A DNA stretch of 62,977 bases, filler included, from Dirinaria sp. TL-2023a (lineage: Eukaryota): the NCBI GenBank assembly GCA_051941275.1. It is 5 parts of 5 records of this genome, joined end to end, with 100 filler letters (N's around TTAATTAATTAA, not from the genome) between each part and the next. Parts side by side here need not be neighbours in the genome. Positions count along the whole stretch, not along the records: positions 12,622 to 25,141 come from JAVEBF010000758.1; 4 more parts are not named here. The stretch is one strand, 5' to 3'. The notes under the pieces were generated by a model. It did no database searches. It had not been told where the DNA came from and saw nothing but the letters and a program-made list of their open reading frames with translations. Positions 12,522 through 25,141 of this stretch are shown here, piece after piece; within the stretch, counting starts at the first letter, position 1; every line of letters begins with the position of its first letter. The translations under genes were made by a program, and so were the position numbers.

Positions 12522-12621
12522 NNNNNNNNNNNNNNNNNNNNNNNNNNNNNNNNNNNNNNNNNNNNTTAATTAATTAANNNNNNNNNNNNNNNNNNNNNNN
12601 NNNNNNNNNNNNNNNNNNNNN
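12522..12621. other. Artificial contig linker (N44-TTAATTAATTAA-N44)
   Basis: 100-bp spacer with stops in all six frames. Confidence 0.99.
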
Positions 12622-12916
12622 GGATTGGATTAAATATGGAAAGTGGAAGGAAAAATTTTTTTTCTTTTTCTTTTCTTTTTTTTTTTTTTTTTTGGAAATT
12701 TGCATGGGAAGCTCGGAAGCAAAAGGGATTTGAACGTCTTTTTACATCTTTCCAAGTGCACATGATTCTTCTCACGTCGGTGAAACATGGTATGCATAGT
12801 CTTCGGGGGGTTTTTTTTTTCAAAAGATAGTGATGATACTCTATTGCATACTTCATTTCTGGAATCGAACAAACTCTCTTTTTTTTTTTTAGCCTCCGTG
12901 AACATGCTGGTTTACT

Positions 12917-13307
12917 CTAAGCTACATTCTCGCCCGGTATCACGCAGCGGCTGCAAATCGGGCTCGAGAGTTGGTTGCGAATGCTGCTGCTGCTGTTGGC
13001 GTGTGTGTGTGTGGATAGATCGGGATTGAAGATTTGTCGTGAAGGTCCTTCTTCGGAGATATCAGTATCGAGTTGTTGGACTGCAAGGGGATGAAGAAAT
13101 ACCTTTGCATCTGCCTGATTGCAATGATTTCCGTGATGGTAAGTTGACGAACAGGCTTGGCGCGCTCTGCTTCGCGAGTCTGCCTTTCACAGCCGGCACG
13201 TGATTGTGATCCGCCTGCTGATGTTGGCGGGAAGCTGGCTGATCGTCCCTCGGCGGCGGAGGGAGACCTCGATGCGCTTCCTCGCTCAAGACGAGGTTAC
13301 AAAACCG
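12917..13307 (-). promoter_or_regulatory. eRF1 3'-UTR: in-frame readthrough extension plus predicted 3'-UTR intron (13102 to ~13048)
   Basis: TGA-CGG stop context; frame open from 13307; donor AAG|GTATTT at 13102, branch TACTGAT 13067-13061, AAG acceptor at 13051 or 13048; spliced frame stops at TAG 12919-12917. Confidence 0.6.
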
Positions 13308-14854
13308 TCAGTCTGCAGTTTTCGTCAGCCGGTTTTTCCTTTCGGTCTTCACGCACCCTCGTACAAAACAAGGGTGGAGTAAAAGTTGGGAAAAACACAC
13401 CATCATAGAATTCGTCTTCGTCGTCGTAATCGGCCAACTGCTCAAAGTTGAGGTTGTACCTCAACAACGCTCCGATGCCACCAAAACCCTTCACGAACTG
13501 GTTTCCCTCGCTCGAGCGGTCCGAAACAAACTCCAGCGCGGCGCCGAAGTCTTTGTACTTCTCCGCCAGCCACTCGAGGAGAGAGCCGCTGTCGACGACT
13601 TCCATCTCCTGTCCGGTATCTTTGTCCATGAACATCTCGCGGTCTGTCTCTTGCTGCTTGAGCGTGTGCAGTACGACTTCCGTGCCACTGGACGCTTTCA
13701 TCACCCACCGCGTAACGTCCAAGTCTTCAAAGACGATCAGGGTCTCTGCTGCGCCGGCTTCGAGTGCTTTGAGAGTGTCATCAACGCCATAGCAGACGCG
13801 ACCGCTGTCCTGGCTGATTTCCTCGAAGTACTTCCCAATGAGCTTCTTCTCTTGGATGAACTTGACATTGCTGAGAGTCTCAGACGCAAGCTCAATGGCT
13901 TGGTTAAATCCGTTTTCCCCGCCGTAGGAAACGTCGACAACTTTGATTACTTTGCTCTGCAAGCGATTGTCGAACATGTCAGACTGGTTGAGGTCGTTTT
14001 TGAAGTCGGCAGACCCGGCCAAGATAATGCCTGCAACGTTGACTTTGTCACTAGTGATGAAGTTCTGCACGGCCAGTTCTGCCACTTTACGGACGTAGTT
14101 GTGCCGCTTTTCTTCACGCAGACGGGCGAAACGGAGAGCGGATTGTCCACCTCGGCCGTGCTTCTTGGGTAGGTCGACCGAGAATTTGTGCACTACGTCT
14201 CTAGTATTGCCACTTAGAGTTCCGAATAGAGCACCATTGCCATCCATGACAATGAAACCAAACTTTTGGTCCGACTCGAGTAGTTCGCTGAGAGCTTCAG
14301 TATGGAACTTGTTGTCGCAGAGGTATAGAGAGGTGTTGATCGGCTTGAAGGGCTCAAAATCGATGTTGATCTTACGCTCTTTGCCTTCCGAAGTGATGAT
14401 TTCACCGCAGTAGACGACGAGACCATTCGTTGGGACCTTGTTGTAGAGCTTCAGGCGCTGCTGAGTGGATGTGATGGCTGAGAGCACCGAGAGACGATTG
14501 ACACGGGATTTGATGTTGGAAGCAGTCCCCTACGATGGTTAGACAATCGCTTCAACGATGGGAACCGATGATTGGGCATACAAACTCTTCAGCCAGCATT
14601 CGCGCTTGGCGAGAAATCTGATCCCTCGGAGCTGCATCACAACATCATCAGCCTCACTTCTCTGGCGGACGCTCAATAGAAGTCAAGCGCAGGAGAGGAT
14701 AGGGAAAATAGATGGACGACGTAGACGACATACGGATAATGAGCGATATCATGGAGGTTCCATTGCCCCGCGCGGATTCCAGACGCTTGATGAGCTTTTT
14801 GACCTTCCATATTTCGAGATTCTTCTCGGCTTCGGTAGCCTGCTGAGCACTCAT
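13308..14854 (-). CDS. SUP45: Eukaryotic peptide chain release factor 1 (eRF1)
   Basis: [24 protein letters not shown] and [10 protein letters not shown] motifs. Three coding introns; the last (13400-13313) leaves a terminal exon AC-TGA giving ...DEFYDD*. Confidence 0.97.
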
Positions 14855-15763
14855 GGTGGATTGTGGTTGTTGTCGGATCCTTCAGAAATCTCCCTAAGAT
14901 TGTAGTGCTAAACGTTTGCCAAGGAAGATCTGGATGGGTAGCACGCAGAAATGTGCTCGAGGTGCTGTACCTCAAGGTACTACTTACTGTGTGTTTGCTG
15001 GAAGTGGGATGGTGCGGGATGGATTATTATCACTCGCTAAGAGCCGGTTGAGTCATTCGCCACGTATTAGATAAGCACGGGGGGTTTGGTGCTGTATGAG
15101 TGGCTGAGTAGAGCCTTGGATTGGAGTGGCTGAGTGGGGTTGTGATAAGGTAAGTGATACTCGTACATTATTGTTGTCACTCGCAGTTCCAGTTACCTTA
15201 AGGTAGCGACTGGATTCAAATCACTAGCAGAGTTAGGTACAATGTAGGTACTTTTTTCAAAATCCCATACCCTCTCATTCCCTCCATTGATCCGGGATTC
15301 TATTACCCCTAACATGCAGTCATCCCAACCCACAAGCGTCTTGGGGTGGGGTATCCCGCAGATAAATGTGCTTTTCATCCACCCGATTCTTGCTCTTATC
15401 GCTCGCTACTTCCTACCAGGCTACTGCGCACGCGAAATGGAAAACTACTCACGCAACTGCATGAATGGACCCGCTAAATGGACCCTCGATGCCAGAAAGA
15501 CATGCATGTTGCGGTCATTCATACTTTCTTCTTTTGCCTCTTCATCAAGCTCCTCAATCCTTCTCCTTTTCTTGACTGGGTCATTGTGGTTTTCTCTCCA
15601 TATCCTATGTATACCTGCCCCGCGTGACACCCTAATCTACATACCTTACTCCCTAATCAGCTAGTCTGATACTGGAGGACGGGCGGATTCTCCTACTCGA
15701 CCTACACTGTCCAACATGAACTGGTTCTGAGACTGTGACTATGAGCGGGCGTGTTAATGCGAA

Positions 15764-18068
15764 ATGGCCCATCAGCCCAGATCGAATGTACCTCAAAGCT
15801 GGGAAGACTATGAACGGGGCCTCTCACCACGGCAGGGTTCAGTTGGCTCTGAAACCAGCCATGTTCGTTTCGGTGAAGGTTCTCCAGCTGCCTTATCGGA
15901 TCGCCTTGAGATCCCCAGGTCAAGGGGCAACAACGATGACATGGAAGAGGGCTCACATCCACGAAGGTACGCTCGGAATCATATATGCAGCTAGTATCTG
16001 GCCATCGATCAAAATACAGAACGCCGAAACGCATGTGGACGTGTTGCAGGCTGACCCGGGCTCGTGATAGATCTTCCTTCTCCATGCGTGTCAGACACCT
16101 CGGAGGTGTGAACAGTCTCGAAAACTTTGCTCGCTCGTGGCAGCGTGCTGCTGGGTTTAATGAAATACCTTCGAGCCGACCTTCTTTCGTGTTTTCAGAG
16201 GAGGACGACAATGTGGGAGGACGACATCAGATCTCTCATCCGGCCAGCCAGCAGACTTCGTTGCTGAGGCAGCAACTGGAAAGAGGAAGGCTCCCTTCGG
16301 AAACTGTCGTGGATGACGGACCTACGCCCCTAGGTCCCTCCGATGAAGAAATTGGACCAACGCAAAGTGCCCCCACGTCATACGACCCACGGAAAAGCGA
16401 CATTTTGGGCAGCACTCCATATCTAGCTTCCCCTTTTGCATCAAGCTATGCCGGTCAGTATGGCTCTTTGGCTTCACGAGTCAACTCTTCGTCTATGCAT
16501 CATGCTGGTAGACTGTACAAGGAACAACAAGTTACTGGCGAGCAAGACCCTGACAAAGACCACCAGCCACTACTCTTGAAGGCGGTCGAGAGAGAAGATG
16601 GCAAAATCGTCCACGTCGTAGTTGGCCAATCGACTTTGCCTCAAACAGTTTTCAATTCTGTGAATGTTCTGGTTGGGGTAGGTATCCTGAGCTTGCCCTT
16701 GGGCGTTCACTATTCGGGGTGGCTCCTGGGGATGCCTTTTTTGCTCCTTTCGGCAATGGCGACGAGATACACAGCTAAAACCCTTGCCAAATGTCTTGAT
16801 GTGGACAATTCGCTGGTCACTTTCGCTGACATAGCGTACGTTGCGTTCGGTTGGAAAGCCAGGATAGCTACGAGCCTCATATTTACCGTGGAGCTTCTCG
16901 GAGCCTGCGTTGCACTCGTCGTTGTTTTTGCGGACAGTCTTGATGCGTTAATACCTGGCTGGAGCATAGTGCAGTGGAAGGTCTTCTGTGGAGCAATACT
17001 GATACCATTGAGCTTCGTCCCTCTCCGATTCCTCAGCTTCACGAGCGTGTTGGGCATAATGTCTTGCTTGGGAAGTAAGTCCTCCAAGCGTGTTGTGCAG
17101 CACAGCAGCTAAGACTGTACAGTCATCATCTTAGTCTTCGTCGATGGCTTGTTGAAGGCAGATCCCCCAGGCTCTCTAAGGCATCCTGCGAAGACCCACC
17201 TACTACCCGCAGCCTGGTCCTCTTTGCCGCTCAGCTTCGGTTTGCTTATGTGTAGGTCTCCCAGTTCTGTTCATGAATTCGGACACAATTGCTGAAATAG
17301 AGAAGCACCTTGGAGTGGCCACAGTGTTTTTCCAAACATATACAAAGACATGAGGCACCCCCACAAGTATCCGAAAGCAGTCAACGATACGTATATCTTT
17401 ACTGTACGTTGACAAAGAGACCTAGCGCTTGCGTTTGCTAACAGTTCAAGTATCTCGTAGAAATTAGTATGGCAGTAATTGGCCTGTTGATGTTCGGTGA
17501 CCGCATCCGCGATGAGATCACATTCAACATCCTAACGACCAAGGGTTACCCTCATGCTTTATCTGTATGCATTGTGGTCTTCATCGCAATAGTTCCACTG
17601 ACTAAAGTTCCGTTGAAGTAAGCCACAATATTACCGACGCTCTCTTCGACTTCTGGAAAATAAGATAGAGCTAATGAATCTTTCAGTGCTCGGCCAATTT
17701 TCGTTACGATCGAGGTCCTCTGTGGACTGCATGCACGCTCCGTTCCCACTTTGCCGGGCATTGCTGGTCTGCCAGGGTACACGCGAGGGCTGCTCAAGTG
17801 CTCTATACGAGTAATCCTCATCGTCGTGATCACACTAATTGCAGTCCTGGTCCCATCGTTCGATATTATAATGACTCTCATGGGTTCCGCTATGTGCTCC
17901 ACCATTAGCATAGTCCTACCTTTATCCTTCTACTTGAAAATATTCGGTGCGGAGATTAGTAGAAAAGAAAGGGGTTTGGATTGGTTCTTGATCATCGTTT
18001 GTTTAATAATGGCGAGCATTTGCACGGTTTGGGTCTTTCTTCCACAATACTCGACCGGCGATCGCTGA
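15764..18068 (+). CDS. AVT1: Vacuolar amino acid transporter (AAAP family)
   Basis: Long hydrophilic N-terminus with GGVNSLENFARSWQRAAGF, then GQSTLPQTVFNSVNVLVGVGILSLP, HSVFPNIY and many TM segments; about five introns. Confidence 0.9.
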
Positions 18069-18593
18069 GCAGGGGCAATTTGCAGAGTTCGAAGGCCTCC
18101 TAACGGTAAATTAGCGGCATTGCAGGTGTTTCTCGTGTAGGTGTACTGGTGGCAGCCTTTGCGAGATTGTCCCATTTGAACCATTCATTGAGCCCCACAG
18201 CATCGACTCATATCTTTATCTAGGCTCTTCTATATAGAGCTCCCTATTAATAGGTATTATGAACTGCACCAAAGCAAGCTATGTGATGGCAATGCCAAGC
18301 AATCGTATGACGAGGAAACTAATTGCTTTAAGTTGACGCGCGAAATTAAAGAGGTACATGTAGCATGCAGTAGTATCGCCACAACCTCCTAATGCTTATG
18401 GTTTATGGCTTATGGCTTATGGCTTACATGTAGTGAATCTTGAACGTGGCCGTCTTACTCAACACTTCATTCCAGCCTGGCATTCAAGGTAAATATTACA
18501 AGCTATTCACGATGTGAAAATTTTTGTAGCATACCTTACCGTAAGTACAGTAGTAGATGTACGTAGACGTCGGACGCGTAAGGTAAGTATTCG

Positions 18594-19730
18594 ATGATGT
18601 CTGGGGCCAAAATGCGAAGCAAGATCGCGTACCTTGGACCACCATCGTCGTACACCCATCAGGTACGTTCTCCTGAGATACTTTTACTCCAAATGTGCAA
18701 GTCTGAAGGTCAACTAGGCTGCTCTTAGCCTGTTCGGAGACGACAACGATTTACTAGAGCCTACGGTATCTATCTCAGGTATTCCTCGATACCTTTCCAC
18801 GTTATGCCACAAAGTATCCATTAACCATCTGTCTCAGATGTCTTTGAGGCGGTCCACTCTGGCTCTGTCACTTACGGCGTGGTACCGTTCGAAAACTCCG
18901 CCAATGGCTCCGTCGTTTATACACTGGACCTTCTGATAGACCGCGAGAAGCGGTTTTCGGGCATCGAGGTCTGCGGTGAGACCTACATTGATGTCCACCA
19001 TTGCCTGCTGGGATTCGGCAAAAGGGTCGCCAAAGTCGACGAAGCACCCGAATCGGGCTCGATAACCCCTACAATGAACGCACCCAACCCGGAGTCTCCC
19101 CGTACTCGTCCGTTATCAGATCTACGGCACATCCGACGCATCTACTCTCATCCTCAAGCTTTTGGGCAGTGCGAGGCATTTCTATCAACCTACCTTAAGG
19201 GCGTGGAGCGTCAGGAAGTCTCGTCTACCTCCAAAGCAGCCGAGGTCGTGGCAGCAGATAGCCTTCGAACATCGGCTGCCATCTCAAGTGAGCTCGCAGC
19301 GAATGTCCATGGTCTAAAGGTTCTCGCCAGAGGAATCGAAGATCGCGAAGACAACATGACTCGTTTCTTCATCTTAAAACAAGGGGACTCTAACCCTCTC
19401 ACGGTTTCCCTAGATTCTGCAATGCCTTCGCAACCAGCGACACAGGAGAAGTGGAAGAATCTTATTGCGTTCAGGGTCGACCATCAGTCAAGCGGAGCAT
19501 TGGCCAAAAGCCTCAGCGTGTTTGGTAGTCATGATCTCAATTTAACGAGTATCAACAGTCGACCCAGCCGCGAGCACCCCTGGCACTATGTTTTCCTGGT
19601 GGAGTTCAGTGACGAGCGAAGAGGCGGCCGGTCCGAGCAAGTCAACGCTGCGCTAAACGAGCTGAGCACACGCACACAAGGCTGGAAATGGTTGGGAAGT
19701 TGGATCGACAAAGTACCAATAGAGAATTGA
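18594..19730 (+). CDS. PHA2: Prephenate dehydratase
   Basis: IAYLGPPSSYTHQ, VPFENSANGSV, IYSHPQAFGQC, NMTRFFIL and ACT-domain NLTSINSRP; two introns near the 5' end. Confidence 0.95.
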
Positions 19731-20327
19731 ATCTCGCGCAGACATGGCAAGCGCATGATCCCGCTCCTTCAGCCTCAGCTACAGTACAGAAGCAAACTAA
19801 TACCTTCATACGTGTGGTGTATTGTACTACGATTTGCCTGCTGTGCTCTAAAAGCCTGAACGCACAACCTGACTGTCTAGACGCGCGAGACTGGCAATTC
19901 AATACTGACCGTAAGTTAGAACCCTATTGCTGCATGTTAACGAAGATGGTATAAGCTGAGACGAAGTAGAAATTTGAACGAAATGCCAAGACTTGTATCC
20001 GAAGAAATCCCGACAACCCCAACCGAGCCAACCCAGTGAAGATCCCCCGCTCTTCGCGAGCCTCACTCGACTCAGTCCTGCCCTGCACTCAACAATATGT
20101 AATAATCGCTCTTGAACTGGAACTTCGCTGAAACGCCTTCATCGGCCCAGTAACCACGCCATACTCGCTACCCCGTGTTACTCGTACCTCTGTAAACACC
20201 GAATATGGCAGCACATCAGGCGGCGTTAAGCTCATTGGTCCAGACTAGCAGCATGCGCTCAAAGTTGCTCAACGGCTACGCACTGCTGGTCTGGACCCCC
20301 TGGCCTTCAACACTTTTTTAAGGGGCA

Positions 20328-20334
20328 TATAAAA
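20328..20334 (+). promoter_or_regulatory. TATA box of the GH3 gene
   Basis: TATAAAA ~60 bp upstream of ATG 20391, followed by a CT-rich leader. Confidence 0.5.
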
Positions 20335-20390
20335 GGCACCATGCCTCCTCTCTCGAGACCACTTTCCCCCCTCATCTCCAAACTTTCAAC

Positions 20391-23010
20391 ATGGCGGATA
20401 TTAACGTGGATGACGTGCTATCGCAATTGACACTTCAGGAGAAAGCCTCTCTCACAGCCGGTAAGTCCAGTTCAACGGTTGAGGTTCGATTCGCTGACCG
20501 ATCTGTAGGCTCTGACTTCTGGCATACACATCCAATACCTCGACTTGGTATACCTGCGTTACGGACATCCGATGGACCGAATGGCGTCCGTGGTACCCGC
20601 TTCTTTAATGGGGTTCCTGCAGCTTGCCTACCGTGCTCAACCGCGCTTGGTGCTACCTTCGATGAGACGCTCATTCACTCCGTGGGTCGCCTGCTAGGCC
20701 GAGAAGCCAAGGCCAAAGGCGCACACATATTGCTGGGTCCAACTGTCAATATCCAACGCGCACCGATCGGAGGACGAGGCTTCGAATCATTTTCAGAGGA
20801 TCCATTCCTATCGGGCACGCTATGTGGGGCATACTGCAATGGAGTACAAAAAGAGGATATCATTACAACTCCAAAGCACTTTGTCTGCAACGACCAGGAA
20901 CACGAACGCATGGCAGTGAATAGTATTGTCACTGACAGAGCGCTTCGGGAGATCTACTTGATGCCTTTCATGCTTGGGATTAAAATCGCGAGGCCTGCCG
21001 CCCTCATGACAGCATATAACAAAGTCAACGGGATCCATGCAAGCGAGAATACGATACTCTACGACATTCTAAGGCGAGAATGGAAATGGGATGGCTTGGT
21101 TATGAGTGACTGGTAAGAAGTTAACCGTCGCTCAAAACGCTGGGCCTAGCTGACAAGTTTTTAGGTTCGGTACATATAGTACGCCAGACGCAATCAACGC
21201 CGGCCTGGATCTTGAGATGCCAGGGCCCACCCGATGGCGAGGTCAAGCACTGCCTCACGCTGTTACATCGAACAAAATCCGTGAATACGTGCTTGATGAG
21301 CGTGTTCGTGCAGTACTAAAGACTGTAAAGCTCGCCGCAAAATCAAAAATCCCAGGCAACGCTCCAGAGAAGGAGCTCAACGAGCCGGAAGACCGCGCGC
21401 TCTTAAGGCGTGTTGCTGCTGAATCCATCGTTCTTCTCAAAAATGAGAGCAAAGTCCTGCCGTTCGATAATACGAAACCTATTGCTATAATGGGCCCGAA
21501 CTCAAAGTCAGCAGCGTACTGTGGTGGGGGCAGTGCATCACTGGCACCATACTACGCCGTTACTCCATTCCAAGGGCTGTCGTCGCAGTGCCATTCCACC
21601 GTCCACTACGAGCAAGGCGCATATGGTCATAAGGAGCTGCCCTTACTGGGATGCTTACTGCAGCATCCCGATGGCAAGGCAGGATTCCGCTTTCGTGCGT
21701 ACGACAAGCCACCAACCGCAGCTGACCGAAAGCTCTTGGATGAGCTACATCTGACACATTCGTATATGCAATTTATGGACTACAAGGTCCCCAACCTAGA
21801 GGGTTCCTTGTATTATATTGATGTCGATGCGATCTTTGTGCCTGCAGAGGATGGATTATACGACTTCGGCCTCACAGTTCAAGGCACGGCCTGCCTGTTC
21901 GTCGACAGCAAGTTGTTGGTGAATAATGCAACGAACCAGCGGCCAGGATCTAGCTTCTTTGGCGCGGGTACGATGGAAGAAACTGGATCGGTCGATCTGC
22001 AAGCGGGAAAAGCATACTCTGTCAAGGTCGAATTTGGCACTGCACCTACATCGACTTTGCAGCGACCTGGTACTGTATCATTTGGCCCCGGTGGCCTCCG
22101 CATAGGAGGATGCAAATCCCTCGATCCTGAGGCGGAGATTGCTAAAGCTGTTCGGCTAGCTTCAGAGTGTGAGCAAGCTGTCATCTTCGCTGGTATTAAC
22201 GGGGACTGGGAGAGCGAAGGTTATGACAGACCTAATATGGACTCGCCCCCATACGTTGACGAGTTGATCTCGAGAGTCATTGCTGCGAATCCCAGGACCG
22301 TTGTTGTCCTTCAGAGTGGTACTCCAGTAACGATGCCATGGGCTGACAGCACAAGTGCCATCGTTCAAGCATGGTACGGCGGAAATGAGACAGGCAATGC
22401 GATTGCCGATGTGCTCTACGGCCAGGTGAATCCATCTGGAAAGCTCCCGATGACATTCCCTCGCCATCTTGCGCAGAATCCTGCATTCCTGTCGTTTCGA
22501 TCAGAACGTGGTCGCGTGCTGTATGGCGAGGATGTTTACGTTGGATACCGCTACTACGAAAAGCTTTCCATCTCTCCATTGTTTCCTTTCGGCCATGGCA
22601 TCTCTTACACCACATTTCGCTTCTCTGACCTCGAAGTCACTCAGTCGCATTCCGAAGCTCCGGCATCATCTGCAGAGGCTTCAATCACGATTCATTGTTG
22701 CGTGGAGAATACTGGCACCGTAGAGGGCGCCGAGGTCGTCCAAGTCTACATCCAGCAAAAAAACCCTAGCATATCCCGACCGCTCAAAGAACTAAAAGGA
22801 TACAAGAAGGTCTTTCTCCAGCCTGGCGAGAAGGAGTCCGTGAGAATTACGATGGAGGGGCGATATGCATGCAGCTTTTGGGACGAAGGGAGAGACAAAT
22901 GGGTAGTGGAGCAAGGCAAGTACAACATAATGGTTGGGCGGAGCAGTCAAGCCGATTTCTTGGAGCACCAATTGGAAGTGAAAACAACTGGTTGGTGGGA
23001 TGGGCTTTGA
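20391..23010 (+). CDS. Intracellular GH3 beta-glucosidase with PA14 and Fn3-like domains
   Basis: [29 protein letters not shown], catalytic [25 protein letters not shown] and PFGHGISYT; no signal peptide; two introns. Confidence 0.95.
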
Positions 23011-24535
23011 AAGCTTAGATGCGGGCAAATTAGAAGTGGATCCTAGAGCGTGATGAGCTTACGACACCATACGCCTAGATCGTAAGTACGCTATGAATGG
23101 GATCGAAACTACTGTCTATAGAAACCTATCGAGCAGAGAGGGATCTATACTTTCTTTTCACCAAATTGGCTTGCTATCACCACCCCAGATCAATGCCCGA
23201 AGCCTGCTCAAGCAGCAAGACGAGCAATCCTTCCTTTTCTTTTCCCTTCCTTCCCTTGTAGGAAACAAAACGGATGGCTCGAATTCGGGAGCTCGGGCAT
23301 GGATTTGCTCAACGCATTGAATTAATAGCTGAGTTGGTCCGCAAGCTGCCGAATTTTGGACCGGTGGTCGGCAAATTTCAACATTTCTTAGTCCTTTGCC
23401 TCTGACACTTGATTGGTGCACGGCATCGAGTTTCCTAACGGCTGAGCGAAGGAATATCCACACGCCTTGCTGGGAATGGAACATGCCAAGCTGAGATCAA
23501 GGGTGATTTGGCGTGTGCATATATGTGGCGAAACCTTGGGGTCTCGAAATTCTACCCTCCCCTACATGCCCAGTGTACGAGCTAATTTTTTTTTTAAAGA
23601 AGTCTGTCCCACGACAGTAAGTAGTGATATTTGCGCATGTAGGGGAGAGAAAAAGTTTTGGATGCCAACATTCCGCAACATACATGCACACGCCAAATCG
23701 GGACGACTTCAACAATGCCGAACCTGCCTACGCAGCAATGTCGAGCTGATCCCACTGGCGCAGGATGAGGACGTTTGTGCAAAGGAGCTCACTTTTGGAT
23801 CTAATTACGCAAGGCAGGCTCCATATCATACAGCACAGCCAAAAGAGCCGTCTTAGCGGATCAAAGCTCCACTTTCTTGGGCAGTAATGAATATCCATTT
23901 GCCACGAGGCTGAACTTCGCCTACGGAGGCCAGAGTGACATGTCAGGATCCATAGACAACACTCCGTCAACCGATTCAGCCTCTTGTCCTTTTCAACGGA
24001 ATAGCGCTCAGGGTTCGGATGTACTTGTCTCTCAATTGCGCCTTTCCACTTTAATCAAAGGTTTCTCCTCAATCTTTGACCCAATTTCGCTTCGAATCAA
24101 TGCTTAGGGGTCAACCTTCTTTCGCATGCTGTCGGATTCTTCATTTGCTGTTGAATTTCTGCACATCTGATTCCGTGGTACCGGGTCAAGCACGACATGT
24201 GGCGGACAGTCAACGCAAGACAACTGTTCTTATGTCTTGCGATGAATTTCACGGGTGCGTAGCATTCCGCCGCATCGCGGACCTTGTGCGGGAAGACTTT
24301 TTCAAGTCGAATGAGATGTGTTCGAAAATTGGGAATGGCTCGTGGCTGAAGATGTGGAGGCTCGAGCCTCCATCTCTCACACGTTGTAGCATTCATTGTT
24401 GAGTGGCCGTCGTAGTTGCAACTCGACATATAGAGCCGTTTCCTATCTCCAACTGTCACCTTTCAAAATTTCCTGTCCTGCTCTTTCTCCATCTCAGAGA
24501 CCAAAGATTTGAATAATATTCGCACAAGTGCAAAC

Positions 24536-25141
24536 ATGCGGTCGTATTCCCTTTTGTTTGCCCTGTCTGGGTTAGCTGCTTCGTCCCCTATAATCGAGCC
24601 ACCAGCCGTTGTCGAGCTATCATTTTCGCTTGCTACAGTTGATTATCCCTCGACAATTGAAGTTGCGGCAACCAGTGATACTGGAAAACCGCGATTCTTT
24701 GACCGCCTGACGGGCCTGGTGAGGAGGCAGGCAGGCGCAGCTGTGGCAACCTCCACCGTGACGAAGACTGTTGCCTCCACACCTGCGGCGGCGTCCAGCT
24801 CAGTCAGCTCTGGATCCGCTCTTGTCTCTTCGACTACGACGACTGTTTCGAGCTCCTCCAGCTCCAGCGACGTTGCCGCCTCCACAACTTCGGCGGCGTC
24901 CAGCCCAGTCAGCTCTGACTCCGCTCTTGTCTCTTCGACTACTACGACTGTTTCGAGCTCCTCCAGCTCCAGCGACGTTGCTGTCTCCACAACTTCGGCG
25001 GCGTCCAGCTCAGTCAGCTCTGACTCCGCTCTTGTCTCTTCAACTACGACGACTGTATTGAGCTCCTCCAGTTCCTCCAGTCCGGTCTCTACCTCGATCA
25101 TCACGGTTTCTAGCAATAGCTCTAGTGCAGCACCTTCCGAG
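24536..25141 (+). CDS. Secreted Ser/Thr-rich tandem-repeat (cell-wall/mucin-like) protein, 3' truncated by contig end
   Basis: Signal peptide MRSYSLLFALSGLAAS-SP, dibasic LVRR-Q Kex2-like site, 35-aa Ser/Thr repeats. Confidence 0.75.
24786..25085 (+). repeat. 105-bp coding tandem repeat (~3 copies)
   Basis: CGGCGGCGTCCAGC.CAGTCAGCTCTG units start at 24786, 24891 and 24996. Confidence 0.95.

Follow-up and report, generated by a model that had tools for sequence, protein, structure and literature searches.

The eRF1 locus

The window analysed here is the whole stretch of 62,977 nucleotides (nt), filler included, from Dirinaria sp. TL-2023a (GenBank assembly GCA_051941275.1), in which five parts of the genome are joined end to end. 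The part taken from JAVEBF010000758.1 (positions 12,622 to 25,141) carries the gene for the release factor eRF1 on the minus strand. This paper deals with the 3' end of that gene, where the stop codon is followed by a hairpin, an open frame, and an intron in the 3'UTR (3' untranslated region). The concentration of eRF1 sets the accuracy of termination for every gene, so its constancy is a basic question. A feedback loop combining readthrough with nonsense-mediated mRNA decay (NMD) has, to our knowledge, been tested in two systems only: Neurospora and Arabidopsis/Nicotiana. The features of the gene in the window are the following:

13308..14854, minus strand: eRF1 coding sequence (CDS), exons 14854-14734, 14631-14581, 14528-13401, and 13312-13308; the spliced translation has 434 amino acids and ends EFYDD
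13313..13400, minus strand: last coding intron, 88 nt, GTGTGT..CAG; joint 13312->13401 in 4/4 RNA runs
13305..13310, minus strand: main stop codon and its context, UGA at 13310-13308, then CGG at 13307-13305, after the CDS end ...EFYDD
13280..13296, minus strand: conserved hairpin, 5' arm CCUCGU at 13296-13291, loop CUUGA, 3' arm GCGAGG at 13285-13280
13103..13307, minus strand: first part of the putative readthrough frame, 68 codons and 1 nt, in 3'UTR exon 1; from translation
13051..13102, minus strand: 3'UTR intron, 52 nt, GTATTT...TACTGAT...AAG; RNA joint 13050->13103
12917..13050, minus strand: second part of the putative readthrough frame with the next stop, about 43 codons, TAG at 12919-12917; from translation and RNA contigs reaching 12893-12910

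The gene was identified as eRF1 by the Pfam matches of its main exon (eRF1_1, eRF1_2, and eRF1_3; E = 4.6e-15, 6.6e-50, and 1.2e-33, respectively). All three coding-intron joints (14631->14734, 14528->14581, and 13312->13401) were found in RNA contigs. The last coding intron ends 2 nt ahead of the stop codon and splits the final Asp codon, and the gene then reads FYDD-TGA-CGG, as a first-pass annotation of this DNA, made from the sequence alone, had stated.

RNA contigs and eRF1 relatives

The RNA data were assembled contigs (Logan) from four runs of one study and one sample, labelled lichen metagenome, and were compared with positions 12640-15100 of the window. They derive from a relative that is 95-99% alike (about 97%), not from this strain, with 34 of 1128 positions differing in the CDS exon. 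Contigs of this kind are unable to show minor unspliced forms.

For comparison, metagenome contigs were scanned with the main eRF1 exon, which yielded 80 loci. The fungal set comprised 46 filamentous-ascomycete-like loci with 80-95% protein identity, and the other 34 loci (70-80%) served as an outgroup. After duplicate removal, 45 distinct fungal sequences were obtained, the window included.

The intron splitting the last Asp codon was present in 23 and absent from 24 of 47 fungal sequences, a strikingly patchy distribution. Its junction is too near the stop codon to matter for NMD.

Splicing of the 3'UTR intron

RNA contigs of 1830-1903 nt span the whole mRNA and show four joints, each CT..AC on the plus strand and GT..AG on the strand of the gene. 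The fourth, 13050->13103, was seen in all four runs and leaves out precisely 13051-13102, so the form that dominates the assembly has the 3'UTR intron removed. This intron starts from the donor AAG|GTATTT (donor G at 13102), has a branch-like TACTGAT at 13067-13061, and closes with an AAG acceptor ending at 13051. The first-pass annotation had left the acceptor open between 13051 and 13048; since the joint skips 52 nt, the former is the one used in the RNA and the latter is not. Among the observations that would speak against its reading, the same annotation had named an unspliced 3'UTR and a poly(A) site upstream of 13102. The joint in all four runs contradicts the first, and no poly(A) site before 13102 can be obligatory, because the contigs run across this position. 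The contigs end at 12893-12910, where their similarity to the window decays; one loose end has a T13 run and is uninformative on the poly(A) site. The junction lies 205 nt past the stop codon, beyond the 50-55 nt required of a 3'UTR intron in the readthrough/NMD layout.

A homologous intron was found in the closest DNA relative (L001, 95% protein identity), where it is 54 nt long, has a GTATGT donor, and follows the stop codon at a distance of 182 nt (GAGAUGCAGAG|GUAUGU, compared with CAGAUGCAAAG|GUAUUU in the window). RNA-type support was obtained for a second lineage as well: L041, a 2062-nt contig with an intronless CDS, is without exactly the GTAAGT..CAG segment that the genomic loci L076 (54 nt) and L040 (58 nt) contain. 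The three share a tail of 118-120 codons ending IGAAA-stop.

In L040, L038, L021, and L024, the eRF1 coding region aligned without introns, yet a canonical candidate intron was present in the 3'UTR; in L040 this may be the only intron of the gene. The sole CDS intron of L003 is the one just before the stop codon, and a canonical candidate intron was also found in its 3'UTR.

Stop codon and its context

TGA was the stop codon in 47/47 fungal sequences (46 loci and the window), and C followed at +4 in 46/47. The triplet after TGA was CGG in 18 of the 47 (window included), CAG in 12, CAA in 9, and another in 8. By its sequence, the main stop of the window stands in a readthrough-type context and looks leaky. 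A reading of the UGA as selenocysteine was set aside, since fungi are not known to have the machinery for it. UGA-CGG is classed as a type II readthrough motif in the available part of Firth et al. 2011 (PMC3159437), and at the level of sequence this bears out the first-pass annotation, which had called the context readthrough-prone.

Two further observations concern stop codons in the outgroup. The transcript-like contig L080 (about 1430-1445) has TAG-CAATCA at the stop, followed by a 50-codon open frame; the accessible text of PMC5397192 gives this exact context as invariant in plant eRF1-1. Six other outgroup loci (L055, L056, L059, L070, L049, and L075; 70-75% identical) end in TGA-C, several of them after ...YF, with post-stop frames of 15-48 codons. 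They may be instances of this device from other groups of fungi; none of them has the hairpin motif described below.

A conserved hairpin after the stop codon

Alignment of the 50 nt after the stop codon revealed a near-invariant inverted repeat, CCUCGY-loop-RCGAGG, which was absent from the first-pass annotation. In the window the hairpin, which is small and rich in G+C, begins 11 nt after the stop (+12), and the spacer was 11 nt in 40 of 44 distinct sequences. The pattern TGAC-N10-CCTCG-N5-13-CGAGG was found in 41/80 loci, once per locus and at the stop; all of these were fungal (0/34 in the outgroup). The bare repeat occurred twice in the 63-kb window, compared with 0.48 expected.

The hairpin is present in the minimum-energy fold of the window sequence, and RNAalifold run on the 44 sequences predicted the same stem independently. 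Its six pairs were 95.7% paired, compared with 36-56% for slid registers, and the observed covariation or pairing was reached by 2-4 of 500 shuffles. The closing pair was CG in 29 sequences, UG in 8, and UA in 4. Among the distinct sequences, 32 have a hairpin of 17 nt and 8 have one of 20 nt; the length of the loop therefore varies in units of a codon, and the frame is kept. Post-stop codon 5 was CTC in 42/44 sequences, although CTC makes up only 32% of the Leu codons in the same genes, which points to a constraint on the RNA and not on the Leu residue alone. The motif was absent from L021 and L024, where a different 5-bp hairpin folds at the same place.

With UGA in the A site, the position 11 nt past the stop lies approximately where the mRNA enters the ribosome. 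A conserved stem starting about 7-12 nt after the stop codon, as looked for in a type II signal, was found. According to the accessible part of PMC3159437, viral UGA-CGG sites are often accompanied by a readthrough-raising 3' stem with a spacer of 7-12 nt.

An extended lower stem (UUUGG with CCAGA) appeared in many single-sequence folds; RNAalifold gave the structure without it, and it is not claimed. An Rfam search of 12850-13450 returned no family, only two chance-level hits (E = 1.1 and 2.4) far below the gathering scores.

Open frame after the stop codon

In the window, the frame after the UGA comprises 112 sense codons across the spliced junction, and the tail ends ...GENVA. All the elements that the first-pass annotation had listed up to the intron, namely 205 nt of open frame, AAG|GTATTT at 13102, and the TACTGAT branch, are present in the sequence; its final TAG stands at 12919-12917, and its count of about 111 extra codons is corrected to 112. 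This TAG lies 131 nt beyond the junction, with no further joint seen in the contigs reaching 12893, a placement from which the next stop is not expected to induce NMD. A peroxisomal targeting signal (PTS1) at the tail end was rejected, as ...GENVA is not SKL-like.

A frame of this length might belong to an ordinary 3'UTR with an intron, left open by a C-rich, T-poor composition. The region contains 17% T. Of 5000 dinucleotide shuffles, 174 had an open frame of 111 codons or more, and 1126 had one of 52 codons or more (to within 50 nt of the junction). Frame +2 of the window, too, is open for 118 codons once an early stop has been passed. Chance origin is contradicted by the comparative data: sequences with tails only 50-60% identical have in common which stop codon is used, the C at +4, the hairpin, and the open frame. 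This explanation is considered very improbable.

Across the 45 distinct fungal sequences, frame 0 after the stop had a median of 73 codons, and frames +1 and +2 had medians of 15 and 2. The minimum for frame 0 was 48 codons, with L028 left out (the locus ends 32 codons after the stop). Frame 0 was the longest of the three in 43/45 sequences and was open for at least 40 codons in 44/45; the other two frames reached this length in 6 and 5. In the 34 outgroup loci, which mostly have TAA-A/G stops, frame 0 was open for at least 40 codons in 7 only. In pairs at least 70% alike, which are not independent of each other, all six internal indels in the frame were multiples of 3, and third-position substitutions were in mild excess (121/292). 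Selection therefore keeps the frame open, with weak constraint on the peptide.

Loss of the open frame in relatives would have spoken against the first-pass annotation, which had proposed an alignment of orthologous 3'UTRs; in that comparison, TGA-C was conserved in 46/47 sequences, frame 0 was the longest in 43/45, and a canonical candidate intron was placed in 30/45. Together, the window and the 46 related loci show that selection preserves the layout across a broad range of filamentous ascomycetes, a lichen-type fungus included.

Position of the next stop relative to the junction

Intron placements in the relatives were curated by eye from a lenient rule (donor-like hexamer, branch-like pentamer, AG acceptor, and a length of 40-160 nt), read together with the sequences. 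A position weight matrix predictor built on 23 coding introns was discarded: scores of up to 19.3 in its reverse-complement control overlapped those of real 3'UTRs, because the training introns were homologous and their flanks over-fitted. A canonical candidate intron was placed 161-400 nt after the stop codon in the 30 sequences. The remaining 15 were not placed; some were too short, some were transcript-like, and some had weak donors only.

The next stop lies 6-35 nt before the junction in 16 sequences (L001, L004, L043, L009, L012, L013, L015, L022, L025, L027, L031, L033, L034, L036, L039, and L058). In the other 14 (window, L002, L003, L005, L007, L010, L014, L018, L021, L024, L038, L040, L044, and L076) the frame continues through the junction and closes 32-131 nt past it. 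The first-pass annotation had described an extended frame spanning the junction. This holds in the window and is not conserved: in L001 the frame ends at a UAA 35 nt before the homologous junction, giving a 48-codon tail, so crossing cannot be the conserved property. What is conserved is that the next stop falls either in the 'safe' zone of roughly 50 nt ahead of the junction or past the junction. The invariant parts of the arrangement are then the UGA, the +4 C, the hairpin at +12, and a frame open to within about 35 nt of the 3'UTR junction; the tail sequence and the crossing of the junction vary.

The 3'UTR intron could instead hold eRF1 mRNA constitutively low through NMD, or serve export or processing, with readthrough affording no protection. 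The hairpin and UGA-C would then serve otherwise, for example by slowing termination to strengthen NMD or by binding a protein. Such an intron, spliced and more than 55 nt past the stop, is what this explanation calls for, and a stop-proximal hairpin could slow termination as easily as promote readthrough. However, it leaves unexplained why the frame is open in 43/45 sequences while the other frames close at medians of 15 and 2, why 6/6 indels are multiples of 3, and why the next stop never precedes the junction by more than 35 nt in the 30 curated placements. It is regarded as quite unlikely.

Tail peptide

Compared with the RNA relative, 13103-13312 showed a 6-nt in-frame insertion and 11-12 differing positions, and 12893-13050 differed at 18 of 158 positions. 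The 20 tail differences listed from these 11-12 and 18 positions created no stop; they changed the residue in 10/10 cases in the last exon and in 6/10 in the first 3'UTR exon. In the lineage of the window, conservation of the tail sequence is thus lacking, which qualifies the extended isoform put forward in the first-pass annotation. The post-junction frame also contains (CA)6-7 and (CAG)4-5 microsatellites (12980-13015, minus strand); the RNA relative differs at several positions there, which fits no constraint on that part of the tail.

Across the relatives, the first ~35 tail residues share a loose pattern, [QR]F..L[AV]..E...P[DE]...LTA.R. In at least 17 related loci (L017, L020, L022, L025, L027, L030-L038, L058, L016, and L026) the end of the tail reads RPSPLRSVMTAS-stop or differs slightly from it, the peptide usually lying 10-12 codons before the next stop. 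Its codons vary synonymously (Arg CGC/CGA/AGG/AGA; Leu CTT/CTC/CTG/TTG/CTA). Four more loci (L002, L007, L010, and L018) have a related RS.LR.MV.V-stop just after the junction. In the RPSPLRSVMTAS and RS.LR.M lineages, part of the tail thus seems to be under selection at the amino-acid level; the peptide there could target the extended eRF1 for breakdown as a degron, or could serve at the second stop as a nascent-chain signal. A match to the tail motif in the window itself (LSSPIC) was rejected as chance: the regular expression was permissive, an unrelated site in L029 was also hit, and the Ser codon is altered in the RNA relative.

The most serious competing explanation is that the leaky stop serves mainly to produce, by programmed readthrough, a functional eRF1 with a longer C-terminus, the 3'UTR intron being incidental or a secondary tuner. 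It would agree with the frame kept open in 43/45 sequences, the shared pattern of the first tail residues, the synonymous codon changes in the RPSPLRSVMTAS ends with the RS.LR.M-type ends of four more loci, and the mild third-position excess. Against it stand the residue-changing differences in the lineage of the window, a tail of 48 codons in L001 compared with 112 in the window, a tail without any Pfam match, and the alteration of the weak motif match (SSPIC) in the RNA relative. In addition, the plant extended protein is described as inactive and unconserved in the available part of PMC5397192. The isoform explanation is considered rather unlikely.

Proposed readthrough/NMD feedback

With a rough probability of 0.72, the 3' end of this lichen-type ascomycete eRF1 gene is a readthrough/NMD feedback device. 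The layout was read from the DNA and RNA described above, and the function is proposed by analogy with Neurospora and plants. Splicing would leave an exon-junction complex in the 3'UTR, and a ribosome terminating at the UGA would mark the mRNA for NMD. One passing the UGA by readthrough would translate up to or across the junction, strip the complex, and rescue the mRNA. As readthrough competes with eRF1, low eRF1 would give more readthrough, a stabler mRNA, and more eRF1, and high eRF1 the opposite. The hairpin most likely raises basal readthrough, like the 3' stem-loops at viral UGA-CGG sites. The 112-codon tail would be mainly a by-product, with selection keeping the frame open to within about 35 nt of the junction.

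Several points weigh against this proposal. The RNA support consists of contigs of one sample from a relative about 3% different in the CDS, and the 30/45 intron placements were curated by eye after the matrix predictor had failed its control. The hairpin core hardly varies, so the covariation rests on one pair, and a 62-nt segment of the window folds no better than its shuffles (z = -0.39). The arms of the hairpin also encode Leu-Ala/Val...Glu, and some peptide constraint is possible. The open frame of the window is by itself only mildly unusual (174/5000 shuffles). Finally, a tail peptide conserved with synonymous changes in several lineages indicates that the tail is not always a mere by-product.

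Comparison with known systems

Neurospora crassa erf1 is reportedly autoregulated by readthrough and 3'UTR-intron NMD; this is said to have been described by Kurilla et al. in FEBS Lett 2020, who are reported to propose similar circuits in many fungi. EJC-dependent NMD of mRNAs with 3'UTR introns (EJC, exon-junction complex) was reportedly described in Neurospora by Zhang & Sachs in 2015. The erf1 gene of Neurospora is the counterpart of the window gene in another filamentous ascomycete, and an open frame is likewise reported to lie there between a leaky stop and a spliced 3'UTR intron. In Sordariomycete-like loci, the next stop precedes the intron by about 22 nt, whereas the frame of the window crosses the junction.

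For plants, the accessible part of Nyiko et al. 2017 (PMC5397192) defines such a 3'UTR by an NMD-inducing intron, a readthrough context around the stop codon, and a next stop from which NMD is not induced. All three were found in the window as far as sequence can tell, which supports the claim of the first-pass annotation that the gene has the same layout as the Neurospora circuit. By the same account, readthrough can relieve 3'UTR-intron NMD, and the plant eRF1 level inversely controls readthrough and hence the stability of eRF1-1 mRNA. Arabidopsis and other seed-plant eRF1-1 genes thus share the three-part logic, and their extended protein is judged unconserved and probably inactive there, much as the tail is unconserved in the lineage of the window. 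The plant genes differ in their stop context, TAG-CAATCA (type I, CARYYA-like) instead of UGA-CGG with a hairpin, and the available text of PMC5397192 contains neither 'stem-loop' nor 'hairpin'. In the portion available, the plant next stop is placed less than 25 nt upstream of the intron, unlike that of the window (131 nt downstream of the junction), and plants are stated to keep a second, unregulated eRF1 paralogue.

Type II viral signals, as far as the accessible part of PMC3159437 describes them, combine UGA-CGG or UGA-CUA with a stem-loop on the 3' side and occur in alphaviruses, tobraviruses, furoviruses, and coltiviruses. They resemble the window in UGA-CGG, in pairing 7-12 nt after the stop (11 in the window), and in synonymous-site conservation over the arms. 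Their stems, by that description, have at least 10-12 bp and loops of about 100-150 nt, compared with 6 bp and a 5-nt loop in the window. The window hairpin, moreover, lies in a cellular mRNA and would be coupled to NMD. Unlike type II signals, approximately half of the fungal relatives pair the hairpin with CAA/CAG-UUY (CARYYA-like) and not with CGG.

Bacterial prfB, which encodes RF2, is autoregulated by a +1 frameshift. There, too, a release factor senses its own level by competition at a stop codon in its own mRNA, but the event is a frameshift and not readthrough, the system is without an mRNA-decay branch, and it belongs to another domain of life. The RF2 frameshift is mentioned as a prokaryotic precedent in the available part of PMC5397192.

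The layout as such has already been published for Neurospora and seed plants, and only the hairpin and the tail motif might be new. No account of a hairpin after a fungal eRF1 stop codon was found in the open literature, a search that left the key Neurospora erf1 paper outside. Tentatively, and with some doubt, the hairpin may do in a cellular mRNA what the type II stimulators do in viruses, a role not described before, and so set the gain of eRF1 homeostasis, with the tail peptide acting in addition as a degron or nascent-chain signal in many lineages. For annotation, it follows that the real eRF1 mRNA has a 3'UTR intron and a putatively translated 3'UTR.

Other observations at the locus

At 12560-12621 of the window, the 12-mer TTAATTAATTAA, which has a stop in each of the six frames, lies between two runs of N. 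The arrangement resembles an artificial contig joint, in which case the 3' flank of eRF1 ends at about 12622 and the DNA beyond is unrelated. On the other side of the gene, the 5' leader of eRF1 contains an upstream open reading frame of 8 codons (AUG...UGA; 15056-15030, minus strand), about 200 nt before the start codon. It is covered by one RNA contig alone (run X2, reaching 15084) and could act as a second translational or NMD input.

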